42,284 bases of DNA from a virus (Duplodnaviria; Heunggongvirae; Uroviricota; Caudoviricetes): the IMG/VR virus record IMGVR_UViG_2675903409_000014. One strand, given 5' to 3'. Shown here piece after piece: positions 8,991 through 17,090 of this stretch. The notes beneath the pieces are model-generated. The model did no database searches. It was given only the letters and a program-made list of their open reading frames with translations, and had not been told where the DNA came from. The stretch's first letter is position 1, and each line of letters opens with the position of its first letter. Made by a program: the position numbers and the translations under genes.

Positions 8991-9810
8991 ATGGCCGCAT
9001 TACCATACATGCAACTGTACATAGCTGATTACCTGGCTGACACCATGCATTTGTCAGCAGAGGAGCATGGTGCGTATTTGTTGCTGATGTTCAATTACTG
9101 GCAAACAGGAAAGCCAATACCTAAAAACAGGCTGGCAAAAATTGCCCGTCTNNNNNNNNNNNNNNNNNNNNNNNNNNNNNNNNNNNNNNNNNNNNNNNNN
9201 NNNNNNNNNNNNNNNNNNNNNNNNNNNNNNNNNNNNNNNNNNNNNNNNNNNNNNNNNNNNNNNNNNNNNNNNNNNNNNNNNNNNNNNNNNNNNNNNNNNN
9301 NNNNNNNNNNNNNNNNNNNNNNNNNNNNNNNNNNNNNNNNNNNNNNNNNNNNNNNNNNNNNNNNNNNNNNNNNNNNNNNNNNNNNNNNNNNNNNNNNNNN
9401 NNNNNGAACATGATGTCAACACAAAGGCAACTAATAAAGATACAGATAAAGATCTAAAAACAGATCCCCCCCTAAATCCCCCCCGGGGGAATCGAGGTGT
9501 CAAAAAGTTTGACCCTCTGGATATTGCTTTGCCGAACTGGATTTCTGTCTCGCTTTGGCGTGAGTGGGTTGAATTTCGCCAGGCATTGCGAAAACCGATT
9601 CGAACGGAGCAGGGCGCTAACGGGGCGATACGGGAGCTGGAAAAATTCCGCCAGCAGGGTTTTTCACCTGAGCAGGTGATTCGACACAGCATCGCCAATG
9701 AATACCAGGGCTTGTTCGCGCCGAAAGGTGTTCGACCTGAGACGTTACTCCGACAGGTTAACACCGTCTCGTTACCGGATAGTGCGATCCCGCCAGGCTT
9801 CAGGGGGTAA
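8991..9810 (+). CDS. ydaU: YdaU-like replication protein (interrupted by N-run 9152-9405)
   Basis: N-terminal [40 protein letters not shown]... and C-terminal ...[36 protein letters not shown]...; frame break coincides with N-run. Confidence 0.75.
9152..9405. other. Undetermined sequence (N-run) inside ydaU
   Basis: 254 N. Confidence 1.
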
Positions 9811-10577: not shown

Positions 10578-11000
10578 ATGGCGAAACCTTTTACTCCCGA
10601 ACAGCGGGAAGAACTGAAGACGCGAATTGTGGAACTCGTGCATCAGGACGGTCGGGTCACGATTCGGCAGTTGTCAGATGAAACAGGTATCAGTCGTGCG
10701 TCTGTCGGTCGCTTATGCATAGAACTGGTCGCAAGTGGTGATGTATATAATTCTGGCTACGGCTTATTCCCGTCTGAACAGGCTCGCAAGGACTGGCAAA
10801 GCGCCCGCAAAAAACTCTCGAGAGTAAAGGTGAGGAAACCGGTTGTTGTTGATCCGGACCTTATCTGGTCATTACCTGACGGAGAAATACGCCGCTACGA
10901 CAGGCGCCTGAATATAATCTGTCGCGAGTGCCGGAAGAGCGAAGCTATGCAGCGTGTACTGGCTTTCTATCAGGGTAATTTTCAGGAGGCGATACTGTGA
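10578..11000 (+). CDS. Hypothetical nin-region protein at the ydaW position (paralog of 14496..14912)
   Basis: 140 aa; SD aggagg 6 nt upstream of ATG; C-terminal approx 90 aa nearly identical to the second copy (GDVYNSGYGLFPSEQARKDW...RRYDRR.NIICRECRKSE). Confidence 0.7.
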   Translation: MAKPFTPEQREELKTRIVELVHQDGRVTIRQLSDETGISRASVGRLCIELVASGDVYNSGYGLFPSEQARKDWQSARKKLSRVKVRKPVVVDPDLIWSLPDGEIRRYDRRLNIICRECRKSEAMQRVLAFYQGNFQEAIL

Positions 11001-11414
11001 ATGAAATTAGCTATCAGGCTTCAATTACCGCTGGCATTCGCATCAAAGGAGAGGAGCATGGAAATAAAACCAGAAGATGAGTTAAGCAATATCGTTTTAT
11101 TTCCGGTAAAAGAGGATGACCCTCGTAATCAGGTTAATTTTCTTTATGAGCCATCGGAAAGACCATATTGCCATCACGCCTCTGTACGGGTTGACGAAAA
11201 AGAGCGTCAGGTCCGCTGTAAAATCTGCGGTGCGGTTGTGGAGCCGTTTGACTGGATGCTCTCTGTGGCAAAAAGAGAAACCAGACTGGCAGATGATGTA
11301 AGGCTATTGCGCCAGGAGGAACAGGAAAGGCGGAGAAATATAGAAAAGCTGATACAGATTGAGCGTAACGCGAAAGCGCGGATACGCAGGGCGACAAAAT
11401 CCAGAACTGAATAA
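11001..11414 (+). CDS. Hypothetical zinc-ribbon protein
   Basis: 137-aa ORF; CHH...RCKICG cysteine motif; alternative start at 11058 (MEIKPEDEL) with SD aaggagaggag. Confidence 0.55.
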   Translation: MKLAIRLQLPLAFASKERSMEIKPEDELSNIVLFPVKEDDPRNQVNFLYEPSERPYCHHASVRVDEKERQVRCKICGAVVEPFDWMLSVAKRETRLADDVRLLRQEEQERRRNIEKLIQIERNAKARIRRATKSRTE

Positions 11415-11561
11415 TTAAATTTAGCACTGTTAAAAATTTAATCCTTAACCGGAGGGATTTCTGCACCCTCAAATCATCAGGAGACCACCCGAAAGGGCGG
11501 GGAGCAGTCACACATCTGTTTCCGATAGCCCCGTTCTAATGCTACACTCTTTGATATTTTT

Positions 11562-12248
11562 ATGACCCCAATAAACATATTTATGACAGTTGCTGATTTC
11601 AAACGGCCCAAATTGGAGCTCCCAAACGGGGCAAACAAACTACTACTGCACTCTTGCTGTGCTCCATGTTCCGGTGAGGTGATGGAGGCGCTTCAGGCCT
11701 CGGGAATCGACTACACCATCTTTTTCTACAACCCGAACATTCATCCTCAGAAAGAGTATTTAATTCGTAAGGATGAGAATATTCGCTTTGCTGAACAACA
11801 CGGCGTGCCGTTTATTGATGCTGATTACGACACAGACAACTGGTTTGAACGAGCCAAAGGAATGGAATGGGAGCCCGAACGAGGGATCCGTTGCACCATG
11901 TGTTTTGACATGCGTTTTGAGCGGACAGCGCTGTACGCCGCTGAAAATGGTTTCAGTGTGATCAGCAGTTCACTGGGCATTTCACGCTGGAAAAATATGC
12001 AGCAGGTTAACGACTGTGGGCGGCGAGCCGTCGCGCATTATCCGGGCATGGTGTACTGGGATTATAACTGGCGCAAGCAGGGCGGCTCGTCCCGTATGAT
12101 TGAAATCAGCAAGCGCGAAAAATTCTATCAGCAGGAATATTGTGGCTGTGTGTATTCTCTGCGCGATACCAATCTACACCGCAAATCTCAGGGACGCCCT
12201 CTTATCAAAATTGGTCAACTCCACTACGGTAAAGAAGAGAAGGAGTGA
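11562..12248 (+). CDS. QueH/DUF208-like protein (epoxyqueuosine reductase family)
   Basis: 228 aa with [19 protein letters not shown] and QEYCGCVYS motifs recalled as hallmarks of DUF208/QueH. Confidence 0.7.
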
Positions 12249-12270
12249 TTTTATGGGGCACCTTTCTGAT

Positions 12271-12520
12271 NNNNNNNNNNNNNNNNNNNNNNNNNNNNNN
12301 NNNNNNNNNNNNNNNNNNNNNNNNNNNNNNNNNNNNNNNNNNNNNNNNNNNNNNNNNNNNNNNNNNNNNNNNNNNNNNNNNNNNNNNNNNNNNNNNNNNN
12401 NNNNNNNNNNNNNNNNNNNNNNNNNNNNNNNNNNNNNNNNNNNNNNNNNNNNNNNNNNNNNNNNNNNNNNNNNNNNNNNNNNNNNNNNNNNNNNNNNNNN
12501 NNNNNNNNNNNNNNNNNNNN
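12271..12520. other. Undetermined sequence (N-run) after QueH-like gene
   Basis: 250 N. Confidence 1.
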
Positions 12521-12696
12521 AGTGACGGCACTGGTAACGAGGAAAGACCTCTGTGAGGTACGAATCCGAACCGGCCAGACGGAGGTCGCTGTCTTCGTAG
12601 ACTACGAATCCAGGAAGTAAGAGTGACCGGGCGGGGAGCTGATCCCATCCCCGCCCACCTCTGATGTGTCAGGCATCCTCAACGCACCCGCACTTA

Positions 12697-12742
12697 ACCC
12701 GCCCATCGCTGTGATCTCTCAGCGTTTCGGCGGGTTTTTTGT
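12697..12742 (+). terminator. Rho-independent terminator
   Basis: Stem CCCGCC (12698-12703) / GGCGGG (12729-12734) with inner CGCTG/CAGCG pairing, followed by TTTTTTGTTGTTT. Confidence 0.6.
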
Positions 12743-12869
12743 TGTTTATTTCCGGTGAATTTGATTCGCGCACCTTCGCAGATAGAATCGACTCACTTAA
12801 GTAGCGCGCAGGGAGAAGAGGGATGGACCCCGAACAGGGGAGAGCTATTTATCTGGAAGGATTCTGAAG

Positions 12870-13157
12870 ATGAAAATCGAAGAATTGCGTGAAATTTTTA
12901 GTGAAAATGGCCTCTATGCTGTGCGCGTTGAGAATGGAGCGATTGTCAGCCATTGCCGCATTAGATGTTTGCAATCTCAACAAAGGAAGAGCGGTGCTGT
13001 GTTATTTTATTTTTGTAATGGACTTCTGACGGACGGTTTTATTTTGCGTGAGGACGAATTTGTCACATCATTACGGGTTTTGAAAGAGATTGGTTTTAAG
13101 GCTGGTTTTCTGCTTTTGCTGAAGAATAAACTCATCTACAATCTTGAGCAGGATTGA
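12870..13157 (+). CDS. Hypothetical protein
   Basis: 95-aa ORF with SD ggaagga 8 nt upstream; upstream TTGATT-16-TAGAAT promoter-like elements. Confidence 0.5.
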   Translation: MKIEELREIFSENGLYAVRVENGAIVSHCRIRCLQSQQRKSGAVLFYFCNGLLTDGFILREDEFVTSLRVLKEIGFKAGFLLLLKNKLIYNLEQD

Positions 13158-13195
13158 ACTCCTGCTGTGTAACACCGTGCCACCGGAGAAAGCCG

Positions 13196-13444
13196 ATGGC
13201 ACATATACAACTGGTCAAACAAACCTCTTCCGGATTACTTCTCCCGGCGACGCCGGAGAGTTGCGATTTTCTGCATCAAATCAAAATAGGTGAGTGGATA
13301 CACGCAGACTTTAAGCGTGTGTGTAACTACGCATTCCACAAGCGTTTTTTCAAACTCCTGCAACTGGGTTTCGATTACTGGACTCCGGTCGGTGGGGCGA
13401 TCACGCCTCGCGAACGAAAACTGGTGTCCGGTTTCGTTGATTAC
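13196..13444 (+). CDS. nin-region protein, partial copy (3' part masked by N-run), paralog of 18863..19462
   Basis: MAHIQLVKQTSSGLLLPATPESCDFLHQIKIGEWIHADFKRV...; about 97 percent nt identity to 18863-19111. Confidence 0.55.
13196..13444 (+). repeat. Direct repeat copy A (about 249 bp visible, truncated by N-run)
   Basis: About 8 mismatches in 249 nt versus 18863-19111. Confidence 0.8.
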
Positions 13445-13694
13445 NNNNNNNNNNNNNNNNNNNNNNNNNNNNNNNNNNNNNNNNNNNNNNNNNNNNNNNN
13501 NNNNNNNNNNNNNNNNNNNNNNNNNNNNNNNNNNNNNNNNNNNNNNNNNNNNNNNNNNNNNNNNNNNNNNNNNNNNNNNNNNNNNNNNNNNNNNNNNNNN
13601 NNNNNNNNNNNNNNNNNNNNNNNNNNNNNNNNNNNNNNNNNNNNNNNNNNNNNNNNNNNNNNNNNNNNNNNNNNNNNNNNNNNNNNNNNNNNNN
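13445..13694. other. Undetermined sequence (N-run) inside nin-region repeat gene copy A
   Basis: 250 N. Confidence 1.
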
Positions 13695-13718
13695 AATTTT
13701 TACCGGGAGGAAATTTTT

Positions 13719-14480
13719 ATGGAGACTGTTTTTGACGCACTGAAAGCAATGGGAAAAGCCACATCCATAGAACTTGCTGCGCGACTTGATATCAGTCGTG
13801 AAGAAGTGCTGAACGAACTATGGGAACTGAAAAAAGCTGGTTTCGTTGATAAAAGCGCGTACACCTGGCGTGTGGCTGATAACAACGTTCAGCAGGAACA
13901 GCCAATGCAGGCAGAACTGCCGGAAGAAACCACCACGGCAACTGTAGTGAAAATCTCAGAGTGCGATTTAACCGCGACGATTGAACAACGCGGACCACAA
14001 ACGGCGGATGAACTGGCTACGCTGTTCGGTACAACATCCCGCAAAGTTGCTTCAACGCTGGCAATGGCAATCAGCAAAGGACGCCTGATTCGCGTAAACC
14101 AGAACAGTAAATTTCGTTACTGCATGCCGGGCGATAATTTACCAGCAGAGCCGAAAGCTGCATCGGTAGCGGAAACTGATGGTAAAGCCTTTCCTCAGCC
14201 AGCCGGTGTTGCGTTACCAGTACAGGAAGCGGCAACACAGGAAGATATTAAAACAGAAACTGTGGCGGACATTGTGCAGTCGCTGCCATCGTTTACTGAA
14301 ACGCAAGCGGATGACCTAGTTTTACCATCGCTGCATATGGCAAACCGCGAACTGCGTCGGGCGAAAAATCATGTCCAGAAGTGGGAGCGAGTCTGCGCCG
14401 CGCTGCGGGAGCTGAACAAGCACCGGGATATTGTCCGACAGATTGTCGATTCCTCCAGTCGTATTGTGTCGGAAAAGTGA
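13719..14480 (+). CDS. Hypothetical protein, probable winged-helix N-terminus and acidic linker
   Basis: 253 aa [45 protein letters not shown]...; SD gggagg upstream; first codon right after N-run. Confidence 0.65.
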
Positions 14481-14495
14481 TTGCCGGAGGCGCTT

Positions 14496-14912
14496 ATGGC
14501 AAAAGTTTTTACACAGGAAGAGCGTGAAAAAATTAAGGAGCAGGTTGTTGAGTTGGTACGCCAGAGTGGGCGCGAGACGTTAAGGCAACTGGAGGCCAAG
14601 ACAGGTGCGACAAGATATCTGATGAGCATTCTTGCCAGAGAGTTGGTTGCCAGTGGCGATGTATACAACTCTGGCTATGGGTTATTCCCGTCTGAACAGG
14701 CTCGTAAGGATTGGAAAAACGCCCGCAAAAAACTATCCAGGGCAAAGGTGAAAAAAACGGTTGTGGTTGATCCTGACCTTATCTGGTCATTACCAGACGG
14801 AGAAATACGCCGCTATGACAGGCGTCAGAACATAATCTGTCGCGAGTGCCGGAAGAGTGAAGTTATGAAACGTGTACTGGCATTTTATCAAGGAAATCTT
14901 CGGTATTTATAG
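14496..14912 (+). CDS. Hypothetical nin-region protein, second paralog of 10578..11000
   Basis: MAKVFTQEEREKIKEQVVELVRQSGRETLRQLE...; SD ggagg upstream of ATG at 14496 (track ORF starts at TTG 14481). Confidence 0.7.
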   Translation: MAKVFTQEEREKIKEQVVELVRQSGRETLRQLEAKTGATRYLMSILARELVASGDVYNSGYGLFPSEQARKDWKNARKKLSRAKVKKTVVVDPDLIWSLPDGEIRRYDRRQNIICRECRKSEVMKRVLAFYQGNLRYL

Positions 14913-15050
14913 ACGTTACTAGATCAAAGAGCATTAGTTCATATGTAAATTGACATTTTTCTGGCACAGGGGAGAGCTAGCGTGGTTGTCCGCTTTGTGC
15001 CAATAGCGGACATTGCTGGCTCATGGTATGTTAGTTTAAGGAGGCAGGTT

Positions 15051-16073
15051 ATGCCCTGTATTTCGCTGTGGTATAATAGTTGCGCAATTGATACAAGGGA
15101 GCGTTACATCGTGAAAATTGTTTTCGAGGTTAATGGAAAGAAAGTTCCACTAAAATCTTTAAAATACATAAGCAAAAAAGATCAACTCGAAGTAATGAAA
15201 AACTGGTTCTTTGAAAACTTTGAAGATCCGGCAAATGCTTGTCCGTATGAAAGTAGAGAAGGTGGCTATGCTTACATATATGGCGGGCCGTATGATGCGA
15301 GCGAAGAACTACAATCCATCTTCGGTCAATATGTTAAATCTGAGTATATTGAGGAATTAGTAGATGAATTACAAACACAATGTTTTGACTGGTCTGGAAA
15401 CTCAAATAATATAGATGATTGGTACGATGATGATATCTACGACGCTGTAACGTCTTCCGGTAATCCGTATTTAAAATTCATTGATAATATCGATAAAATA
15501 AAAAAACTTGCAAAAGATAAAACTGAACAACAGCAAAAAAACCACTTGCTTAGTTTGCTCTACACGAATGTTATTACAGCTTTGGAAACGCTTTATGTTG
15601 AGCTATTCATTAATTCTATAGAGAAAGATGATGTCTACATAGCCAATTGTATAGAAAAAGGTAAGACTGAATTTAAAGTAAGCAAAGATATTGCTGCGTT
15701 GCCTTTCAAGGGTGAACCCATCGAGAAAATTAGGGGAGAGCTAATCAGGTCAATCAAGGAACACTTGATCAGTGCAAGCTGGCATAGCACTAAAAAGGTA
15801 ATCGACCGCTATGAAGCTACATTCGATATAAAAGTACAAAAAGACTGTCCGATAGAAGCTATTGAATTGGCAACCCTCAATCGAAATCACTTAGTGCATC
15901 GTGGTGGAAAGGATAAAGAAGGGAACCTCGTAGTGATTACAGACCAGGATCTTGAAACGCTGATTGAAAATGCATCGAACCTGGCAATTATGCTCTACAA
16001 CAGTTTAAATGTAGCAACGAATAAAACCACCATTTTGCAACCAGATGACAAACCGTTCATTCATGAATTTTAA
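15051..16073 (+). CDS. Uncharacterized protein A of A+T-rich cassette; C-terminal HEPN-like Rx4H motif
   Basis: Strong SD taaggagg 6-7 nt before ATG 15051; alternative GTG 15111 preceded by TGgTATAAT and aagggag; A+T-rich; motif LNRNHLVHRG. Confidence 0.65.
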   Translation: MPCISLWYNSCAIDTRERYIVKIVFEVNGKKVPLKSLKYISKKDQLEVMKNWFFENFEDPANACPYESREGGYAYIYGGPYDASEELQSIFGQYVKSEYIEELVDELQTQCFDWSGNSNNIDDWYDDDIYDAVTSSGNPYLKFIDNIDKIKKLAKDKTEQQQKNHLLSLLYTNVITALETLYVELFINSIEKDDVYIANCIEKGKTEFKVSKDIAALPFKGEPIEKIRGELIRSIKEHLISASWHSTKKVIDRYEATFDIKVQKDCPIEAIELATLNRNHLVHRGGKDKEGNLVVITDQDLETLIENASNLAIMLYNSLNVATNKTTILQPDDKPFIHEF

Positions 16074-16088
16074 TAGCGCAGGTCATAC

Positions 16089-17090
16089 ATGGATATTCGC
16101 ACACGAAAGACAAAATTTTTAGAGTCGTTAGATTCAACTGAAGTGATACGCAAAGCAGTAAGTCTCGCTATAGATTGCATTATTGATAATCATAATAGTA
16201 ATGAAGATACCCCCTTAGTTATTACCAGCTATGATGATCTCTGTAGAATCCAGGTGCTAAATTATGTACAGGAGTTTTGCGAAGCTGCATTCCCTGATAT
16301 GGATGAATATTACTTTAGTCCTAACATACTTCGCATCAACGGCAAGACTAGTGAAGAAGCTTGTATTAACTTAATTAAACTCTTAAGAAGTACAAAAGGC
16401 ATGCTATTCTGGTCCGATGCCCCATCGTGGTTCGCTAGCCTCCCCGACGGATTATTCCATGTTGTTAACATTGATCAAAAAATCGTTACTCGCGGCCTTA
16501 ATAAGAAAAACTCTAAGCCGACAATAATCAATAAAGATTACAGTGTAGATACACTACTATCAGAGCTATTTTTGAATGGCGCACACATGGAGCAACCCAA
16601 CGTACACAACGTTTCTGAGGGAAACATGAAGTTCTATGATGAATGCCATGCTGGATTAATCAGACCAATACCCGCTCCAATAGGCGCGTCATACGATGAA
16701 GAGATCACAATTAATTCTCCAGATTGGCAAAAGCTCGCGTGTGTAGCTTTACGCCGCTATCAGTCGAAGGAATGTCATGACGGAATGCAATGGGATACAA
16801 CCGATCATGGTTGGACTGATGTAATCGCGTATCCATTCGTCGAAGAAATACAATCAATGGATAATAGTGGTTATCGACAATGTTTAGTTGGGCTGGTCAC
16901 AATAAACAATTCAAATGCAAATTCTCCGTACCTATCTACCGTTTGGATACATCCATTTTATCGCAGGAGAGGGTTATTAAGTAAGTTATGGCCAAAATTA
17001 CAAGAGTTATATGGAAGTAACTTCGAAATTGAGCGACCTAATGAAAATATGAAAGCATTTCTGAAAAGTGCGAAACACGCAGATTACTAA
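16089..17090 (+). CDS. Uncharacterized protein B of A+T-rich cassette; C-terminal GNAT-like motif
   Basis: 333-aa ORF 15 nt after gene A; VWIHPFYRRRGLLSKLWPKL resembles GNAT acetyl-CoA motif A. Confidence 0.7.
   Translation: MDIRTRKTKFLESLDSTEVIRKAVSLAIDCIIDNHNSNEDTPLVITSYDDLCRIQVLNYVQEFCEAAFPDMDEYYFSPNILRINGKTSEEACINLIKLLRSTKGMLFWSDAPSWFASLPDGLFHVVNIDQKIVTRGLNKKNSKPTIINKDYSVDTLLSELFLNGAHMEQPNVHNVSEGNMKFYDECHAGLIRPIPAPIGASYDEEITINSPDWQKLACVALRRYQSKECHDGMQWDTTDHGWTDVIAYPFVEEIQSMDNSGYRQCLVGLVTINNSNANSPYLSTVWIHPFYRRRGLLSKLWPKLQELYGSNFEIERPNENMKAFLKSAKHADY

Follow-up and report, generated by a model that had tools for sequence, protein, structure and literature searches.

A structured segment beside a masked stretch of a lambdoid prophage is very probably the 3′ end of a hok/sok toxin-antitoxin module

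The 225 nt at positions 12521-12745 of a 42,284-nt viral sequence (IMG/VR record IMGVR_UViG_2675903409_000014; this whole stretch is hereafter termed the window) are, with high confidence, the 3′ end of a type I toxin-antitoxin module (hok/sok, hokW/hokD type) situated in the nin region of a lambdoid prophage. The transcript is a hok toxin mRNA of about 440 nt and not a small non-coding RNA, and the system is one already known, the closest relative hokW-sokW having been characterised experimentally. An earlier note, made from the letters of the window, had taken the segment for the 3′ part of a small RNA whose 5′ part is masked, or for a protein-binding site. Of the former, the structured 3′ end of a transcript with its 5′ part under an N-run stood, and the small RNA itself gave way to the hok mRNA. 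The segment is properly labelled as the 3′ end of a hok (hokW/hokD-type) toxin gene, followed by the hok mRNA 3′ UTR with its fbi element, protective stem-loop and terminator. The features to which the text refers are as follows, in window coordinates.

12271-12520, no strand: N-run, its content deduced from near-identical relatives
12522-12620, + strand: 3′ part of a hok-family toxin gene, codons 20-51 (VTALVTRKDLCEVRIRTGQTEVAVFVDYESRK) and TAA stop (translation, Pfam, homologue in the E. coli chromosome locus L002)
12546-12587, + strand: predicted local hairpin in the coding region, GACCUCUGU / ACGGAGGUC with inner pairs (MFE fold of the full mRNA; inverted repeat)
12559-12567, + strand: 9-mer TACGAATCC, copy 1, codons V-R-I (sequence; such a repeat arises in 6% of shuffles)
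12588-12611, + strand: predicted 3′ strand of a long-range helix sequestering the hok Shine-Dalgarno/AUG, holding the palindrome 12594-12608 (MFE fold; covariation)
12603-12611, + strand: 9-mer TACGAATCC, copy 2, conserved Y-E-S codons (alignments)
12617-12628, + strand: GUAAGAG-UGACC over the stop codon, predicted partner of leader GGUUA..CUCUUAC (MFE fold)
12629-12656, + strand: GC hairpin of 9 bp with a 10-nt loop, 9 nt past the stop codon (fold; hairpin in 12 loci; analogy with plasmid R1, PMC9841398)
12664-12676, + strand: AUGUGU-c-AGGCAU, predicted partner of the mok start region (AUGCUU-u-GCACAU) in the full-length mRNA (MFE fold)
12677-12689, + strand: putative fbi (fold-back inhibitory) element CCUCAACGCACCC (MFE fold; end pairing in 12 loci)
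12696-12742, + strand: intrinsic terminator with an 8-bp outer stem, a 5-bp inner stem and U6 (fold, homology)

The frame 12522-12620, where no convincing ORF had been seen, is open for 32 residues and closes with a TAA stop at 12618-12620, and so a protein-coding gene does end inside the segment. These 32 residues match the Pfam family HOK_GEF (PF01848) at 56.5 bits (E 2e-15; the cut-off is 22 bits), a match that covers the C-terminal two-thirds of the Hok/Gef family, and the full 51 aa encoded at L002 raise the score to 81.1 bits. The NCBIfam Hok subfamily model gave 55 bits, below its own cut-off of 73 bits. HokW of phage 933W is identical to the visible residues at 31 of the 32 positions, and to the L002 Hok at 50 of its 51 residues. 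By translation and homology, 12522-12620 codes for the C-terminal 32 residues of a 51-aa Hok membrane toxin, and the 125 nt that follow (12621-12745) are the 3′ UTR of the hok mRNA.

Directly 5′ of the segment the window is masked by 250 N (12271-12520), and near-identical relatives indicate what lies there. In a megablast search of complete E. coli genomes, two chromosomes matched both flanks of the window at 99.8-99.9%; at L002 the identity is 99.9% on both flanks, and 261 nt stand opposite the 250 N. A gapped pattern consisting of the exact flanks of the window's N-run found 17 contigs in IMG/VR, all 17 with a gap of 261 nt, which share the same 450-nt allele with three polymorphic sites only and an identical leader. 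The gene order at L002 is queH, hokD (51 aa, WP_014532198.1, hokD being the name given by PGAP), a hypothetical gene and DUF1367; that of the window agrees, with QueH and the DUF1367 N-terminus confirmed by Pfam. The phage records matched by 11900-13440 in megablast carry the annotations hok, mok, gef or MokW-like, and at the position of the segment itself hok, mok, hokD and hokW are annotated in records of phage as well as of E. coli.

From the counterpart of the mask, L002:3372-3632, one would expect GGGTGCTTGAGG some 36 nt inside the N-run, and ATGAAGCAGCAAAAG as the opening of the frame that ends at 12620; in L002, hok codons 1-19 are within this stretch. A sigma-70-like promoter-like site, TTGATT-18-TAGAAT, is found at L002:3371-3400. 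Rfam RF01794 spans the whole hok mRNA leader at L002:3407-3582 (117 bits, E 6e-28; the gathering score is 59), and an ATG at L002:3520 opens a 70-codon mok frame which is in frame with hok. Judging from these relatives, the N-run should cover most of the promoter site, the mRNA 5′ end (tac, GGGUGCUUGAGG), the leader with the antisense sok, the start of mok and the first 19 codons of hok. Two-thirds of the module, on its 5′ side, are then masked, and their presence and integrity in the window's own genome are deduced from the relatives.

Within the visible segment no Rfam match was found when 11400-13440 was scanned with cmscan at E up to 10, the scan returning three chance-level hits elsewhere and nothing in favour of a small RNA; the segment is silent because the RF01794 model covers the leader only. 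Since Rfam holds no model of the 3′ half of the hok mRNA, covariance-model scans alone would miss such a segment. Beyond the correct annotation the significance of the finding is slight. It is nevertheless a cautionary case, where masking of the 5′ part made a textbook toxin mRNA resemble an orphan structured RNA.

The mask also invites the suggestion that the locus is a decayed hok remnant, in which the 3′ end and UTR survive and the promoter, leader, sok or start has been lost under the N, leaving it non-functional like hokD/relF of K-12 or copies disrupted by insertion sequences. Its 250 N are indeed 11 nt short of the 261 nt of every relative, and insertion sequences often disrupt hok loci, as in L007 and L031 described below. 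That said, the seven N-runs of the window are all 233 to 255 nt long, so the mask may misstate the true length; it probably does, because all 17 contigs have 261 nt and one allele, and an 11-nt deletion under the mask in the window's genome, while possible, is less likely. The flanks agree with L002 at 99.9%, one intact allele with those three polymorphic sites only is shared by all 18 loci that have the window's flanks, and the visible frame and every 3′ element are intact, which together make decay quite improbable. Collinearity of L002 with the window breaks at two other N-runs, 13445-13694 and 9152-9405.

The duplicated 9-mer and the palindrome pointed out in the earlier note are both present, TACGAATCC at 12559-12567 and 12603-12611, 44 nt apart, and TTCGTAG-a-CTACGAA at 12594-12608. 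Chance levels were taken from 2000 dinucleotide-preserving shuffles of the 225 nt: a direct repeat of at least 9 nt occurred in 6% of them, thus the repeat is not significant, and a perfect palindrome with arms of at least 7 nt in 4.7%, which is marginal. The palindrome falls in the codons F-V-D-Y-E. At the second copy of the 9-mer most relatives have TACGAACCT or TACGAATCT, thus the repeat is not conserved, and most have CTTCACAGCTTACGAACC in place of CTTCGTAGACTACGAATC, by which the repeat and the palindrome are lost and the module is kept. We judge the repeat to be a coincidence of coding. The palindrome cannot form a local RNA hairpin because its loop would be 1 nt, and in the modelled fold its left arm is predicted to take part in the long-range helix that sequesters the hok start.

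In favour of a regulatory small RNA in its own right, or of a site bound by protein at which the 9-mer and palindrome act as operators, one could cite the high degree of structure in this region, and that each of the two motifs is somewhat rare by chance, at 6% and 4.7% of shuffles respectively. However, both motifs are inside an ORF with a strong Hok match and are absent from most relatives keeping the module, the segment has no Rfam family match, and its structured parts are all explained by elements of the hok mRNA; such a regulatory element therefore deserves very little credence. As protein-binding sites the 9-mer and palindrome were rejected, being within codons, not conserved and at a chance level of 5-6%.

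The remainder of the segment is accounted for by the hok mRNA 3′ UTR, which taken alone (12621-12745) folds with z = -3.96, none of 200 shuffles folding as well. The GC hairpin noticed earlier proved to be a conserved RNA element: GGGCGGGG(A) at 12629-12637 pairs with (T)CCCCGCCC at 12648-12656 in nine perfect pairs around a 10-nt loop, a perfect stem of at least 9 occurring in 1% of the 2000 shuffles. In hok of plasmid R1 the last stem-loop of the truncated RNA protects against 3′-5′ exonucleases (PMC9841398), and by analogy the GC hairpin would be the terminal 3′ stem-loop by which the hok mRNA, once processed (truncated), is protected. Further downstream, fbi at 12677-12689 can form 12 pairs, with one bulged C, with the 5′ end GGGUGCUUGAGG (tac, seen in L002 and masked in the window).

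The terminator likewise holds, with an outer stem AACCCGCC at 12696-12703 / GGCGGGTT at 12729-12736 (6 GC pairs among 8 bp), an inner stem at 12707-12711 / 12720-12724 and T6 at 12737-12742. A consensus terminator scan found none at 12696-12742, where the loop of 25 nt exceeds the 8 nt of the scanner; because the consensus scanner misses loops of more than 8 nt, the terminator was accepted from fold and homology. Relatives such as Rac and PPompW have at the same place a canonical terminator, CCCGC-UUCG-GCGGG-U5/6, and the window allele carries about 25 extra nt in the terminator loop (12704-12728), including the inner 5-bp stem CGCUG/CAGCG. This terminator-insertion allele was present in 2 of 5426 complete E. 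coli genomes and in the 17 IMG/VR contigs, and was not found in GTDB representative genomes. The fbi-containing part of the UTR is far more widespread, occurring in 4139 of the 5426 genomes with up to 9 UTR copies per genome.

The elements were placed in a common structure by folding the L002 mRNA, whose visible part is identical to the window and whose pairs were mapped onto window coordinates. The full mRNA gave an MFE fold of -189.6 kcal/mol (z = -8.4) that includes the tac/fbi end pairing, and in which GCUG/CUUCGUAG (12588-12600) pairs with CUAUGAAG/CAGC of the masked hok SD/AUG region. The fold was compared over 12 loci of the hokW/hokD subfamily and plasmid copies from E. coli, Klebsiella, Enterobacter, Pantoea and Vibrio, with toxin identity to the query down to about 37% and mRNA 5′ ends set by Rfam. 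The distant plasmid loci were needed because tac and fbi are invariant in the hokW/hokD subfamily, within which there is no tac/fbi covariation to read.

Of the duplexes that the first 16 nt can form with the 3′ UTR, the best is found 43-70 nt past the stop in each of these loci except the R1-like RHB23, where the end duplex reaches back to stop+24. The end-pairing sequences vary, being GGGUGC/GCACCC, GGCGC/GCGCC or GGGUGCUC/GAGCACCC, and in any one sequence the tac/fbi duplex is modestly significant: it was equalled in 0-14 of 300 shuffles at most loci, and more often at three R1-like ones. Since one of the aligned sequences also supplied the structure under test, the percentages of paired cells are inflated: the six terminal pairs are 93% paired versus 28-57% with the partner slid, and the whole fold is 74.6% paired versus about 40% when slid. 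Read with the same inflation, the hok-start helices 12 and 13 are 91% paired over the 12 loci, helix 8 (12617-12628 with the leader) 79.7%, helix 17 (the local hairpin 12546-12587) 72.6% and helix 7 (12664-12676 with the mok start) 71%, the last with both-side changes in 8 of its 12 pairs. Both-side changes were counted in 56 pairs overall, a number reached by 0 of 500 shuffles. Pair 4/433 is compensatory, U-A in eight loci and C-G in four, and the hok-start helix is compensatory at three pairs (UA6/CG4; GC6/AU5 with one GU; AU6/UG5/CG1). For the GC hairpin and terminator the corresponding values of 66% and 38% understate conservation, the MAFFT columns being out of register between subfamilies, and for this reason per-sequence folds were used; these place a GC-rich hairpin a few nt past the stop in 12 of 12 loci, with differing stem sequences.

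The same comparison bears on whether the segment might simply be the terminator region of an upstream queH operon, with incidental hairpins. In favour of this, queH (11562-12248) shares the strand of the segment, and from its end to 12696 no terminator was seen. Against it, relatives have a promoter-like site and an mRNA 5′ end between queH and hok, and the hairpins and fbi co-vary with the hok leader in loci without queH, by which a queH terminator becomes barely credible and the hok mRNA the preferred reading.

Some plasmid copies of hok are disrupted beside insertion sequences. In L007 (pMB9366_2) the sequence diverges past the GC hairpin and both fbi and terminator are lost, with an IS421 transposase gene nearby; such a loss of fbi should de-repress the toxin mRNA. 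In L031 (pZYST1C1) the leader is lost next to ISKpn28, and RF01794 has no match there.

From the R1 hok/sok mechanism, used as the model (PMC9841398), together with the fold and the covariation, we infer that the full-length mRNA of about 440 nt would be made in a closed and inert form. In this form fbi (12677-12689) would pair with the extreme 5′ end (tac) under the N-run, 12664-12676 with the mok start and 12588-12611 with the hok SD/AUG, such that neither ribosomes nor the Sok antisense RNA could bind. Slow 3′-5′ exonucleolytic trimming would then strip the terminator and fbi and halt at the GC hairpin (12629-12656), and the trimmed mRNA would refold, exposing the mok start and the Sok target. 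Where Sok is bound, the refolded mRNA would be cut by RNase III; where the unstable Sok has decayed, the toxin would be translated.

Among known systems the module is nearest to hokW-mokW-sokW of the Stx2 phage 933W / Sakai prophage Sp5 (AF125520; Takada et al., 2021, PMC8621323), with 91.6% nucleotide identity over mRNA positions 1-405. Toxicity of HokW, which is 98% identical to the toxin of this allele, and its neutralisation by sokW RNA have been shown experimentally, and after induction of the prophage hokW-sokW has a part in lysis of the host and release of phage (PMC8621323). The 933W locus, also in a lambdoid prophage, shares the V-D-Y-E-S codons and hence the palindrome, as well as the tac and fbi sequences; mokW, hokW and sokW are annotated there, mokW and hokW sharing frame and stop, and sokW sits at the homologous place. 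It differs in having R instead of E at residue 50, in the stem and loop of the GC hairpin and in the sequence past fbi, which diverges and has no such terminator; the 933W module is near the right genome end, not between queH and DUF1367. Several further differences fall in the Sok-target/mok start region (L002:3511-3527) of loci whose toxins are 98% identical, and this Sok-target divergence would fit a divergence of antisense specificity between co-resident hok/sok copies.

The paradigm type I system, hok/sok (parB) of plasmid R1, is alike in its RF01794 leader, Hok/Gef toxin, post-stop hairpin and terminator, and in an fbi about 50-65 nt past the stop that pairs with the 5′ end, the mechanism being presumed the same (PMC9841398). 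HokW and R1 Hok share about 44% amino acid identity (PMC8621323); between the L002 Hok and R1-like plasmid copies it was 42-44% by tblastn. R1 differs in its tac/fbi sequences, GGCGC/GCGCC there versus GGGUGC/GCACCC here, and in its role in plasmid maintenance, whereas the present module is located in a prophage. The mok frame of R1 is presumably offset from hok, and in the window's allele, as seen in L002, it is in frame.

A third comparison is hokD (relF) in the Qin prophage of E. coli K-12, which is of the same subfamily, the L002 gene being itself called hokD by PGAP. We take the N-terminal 44 residues of the K-12 protein to be essentially identical to those encoded here. The K-12 gene reportedly lacks the mok/sok leader and fbi and has a different C-terminus; the window-type allele, by comparison, keeps the full regulatory set.

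The relation of mok to hok varies among the relatives. The mok ATG is in frame with hok in L002 (3520-3732), 933W, HannyBb and pSTEC1024, giving a 70-aa N-terminally extended Hok, and Rac, P1-like and PPompW loci have one extra T between the two starts (AAAGGTCAAGG instead of AAAGGCAAGG). The Rac record annotates mok out of frame with hok, and that of PPompW a single 70-codon gef ORF. Read from the frames, an in-frame mok-hok could yield a 70-aa extended toxin.

There is a slim chance that the features particular to this allele, the insertion of about 25 nt in the terminator and the V-D codons that fully pair the hok-start helix, reflect adaptive tuning and not drift. If so, 3′ trimming would be slowed by the greater bulk of the terminator and by a more tightly closed mRNA, and the toxin activated later, by which the timing of Hok-assisted lysis after prophage induction could be set.

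The surroundings of the module gave several further observations. The gene directly upstream in the nin region (11562-12248) encodes a QueH epoxyqueuosine reductase (Pfam, 220 bits), an unusual metabolic/tRNA-modification cargo for a lambdoid prophage. Just past the hok terminator, a promoter-like TTGATT-16-TAGAAT (12761-12788), whose hexamers are those of the hok promoter-like site TTGATT-18-TAGAAT, precedes a 95-aa ORF (12870-13157) that has no Pfam hit and equals the gene named "rem" in the Rac and PPompW records. Around the N-run 13445-13694 (13154-14912) the context jumps: to the left lie the first 97 codons of the DUF1367 nin-region gene, collinear with L002, and to the right a DUF1627 protein and, at 14481-14912, another DUF977 gene besides the one at 10578-11000, this side being 99.8% identical to replication regions of O103/O26 STEC prophages. 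No complete E. coli genome spanned both sides of this N-run, which hides either a recombinant/tandem prophage junction or a scaffold join. Beyond it, two adjacent ORFs of 363 and 333 aa (14982-17090) match Pfam only weakly, to a HEPN/RES N-terminal domain (E 2e-4) and to GNAT (E 9e-4), and on these hints the pair could be a defence or toxin cargo of the prophage early region.
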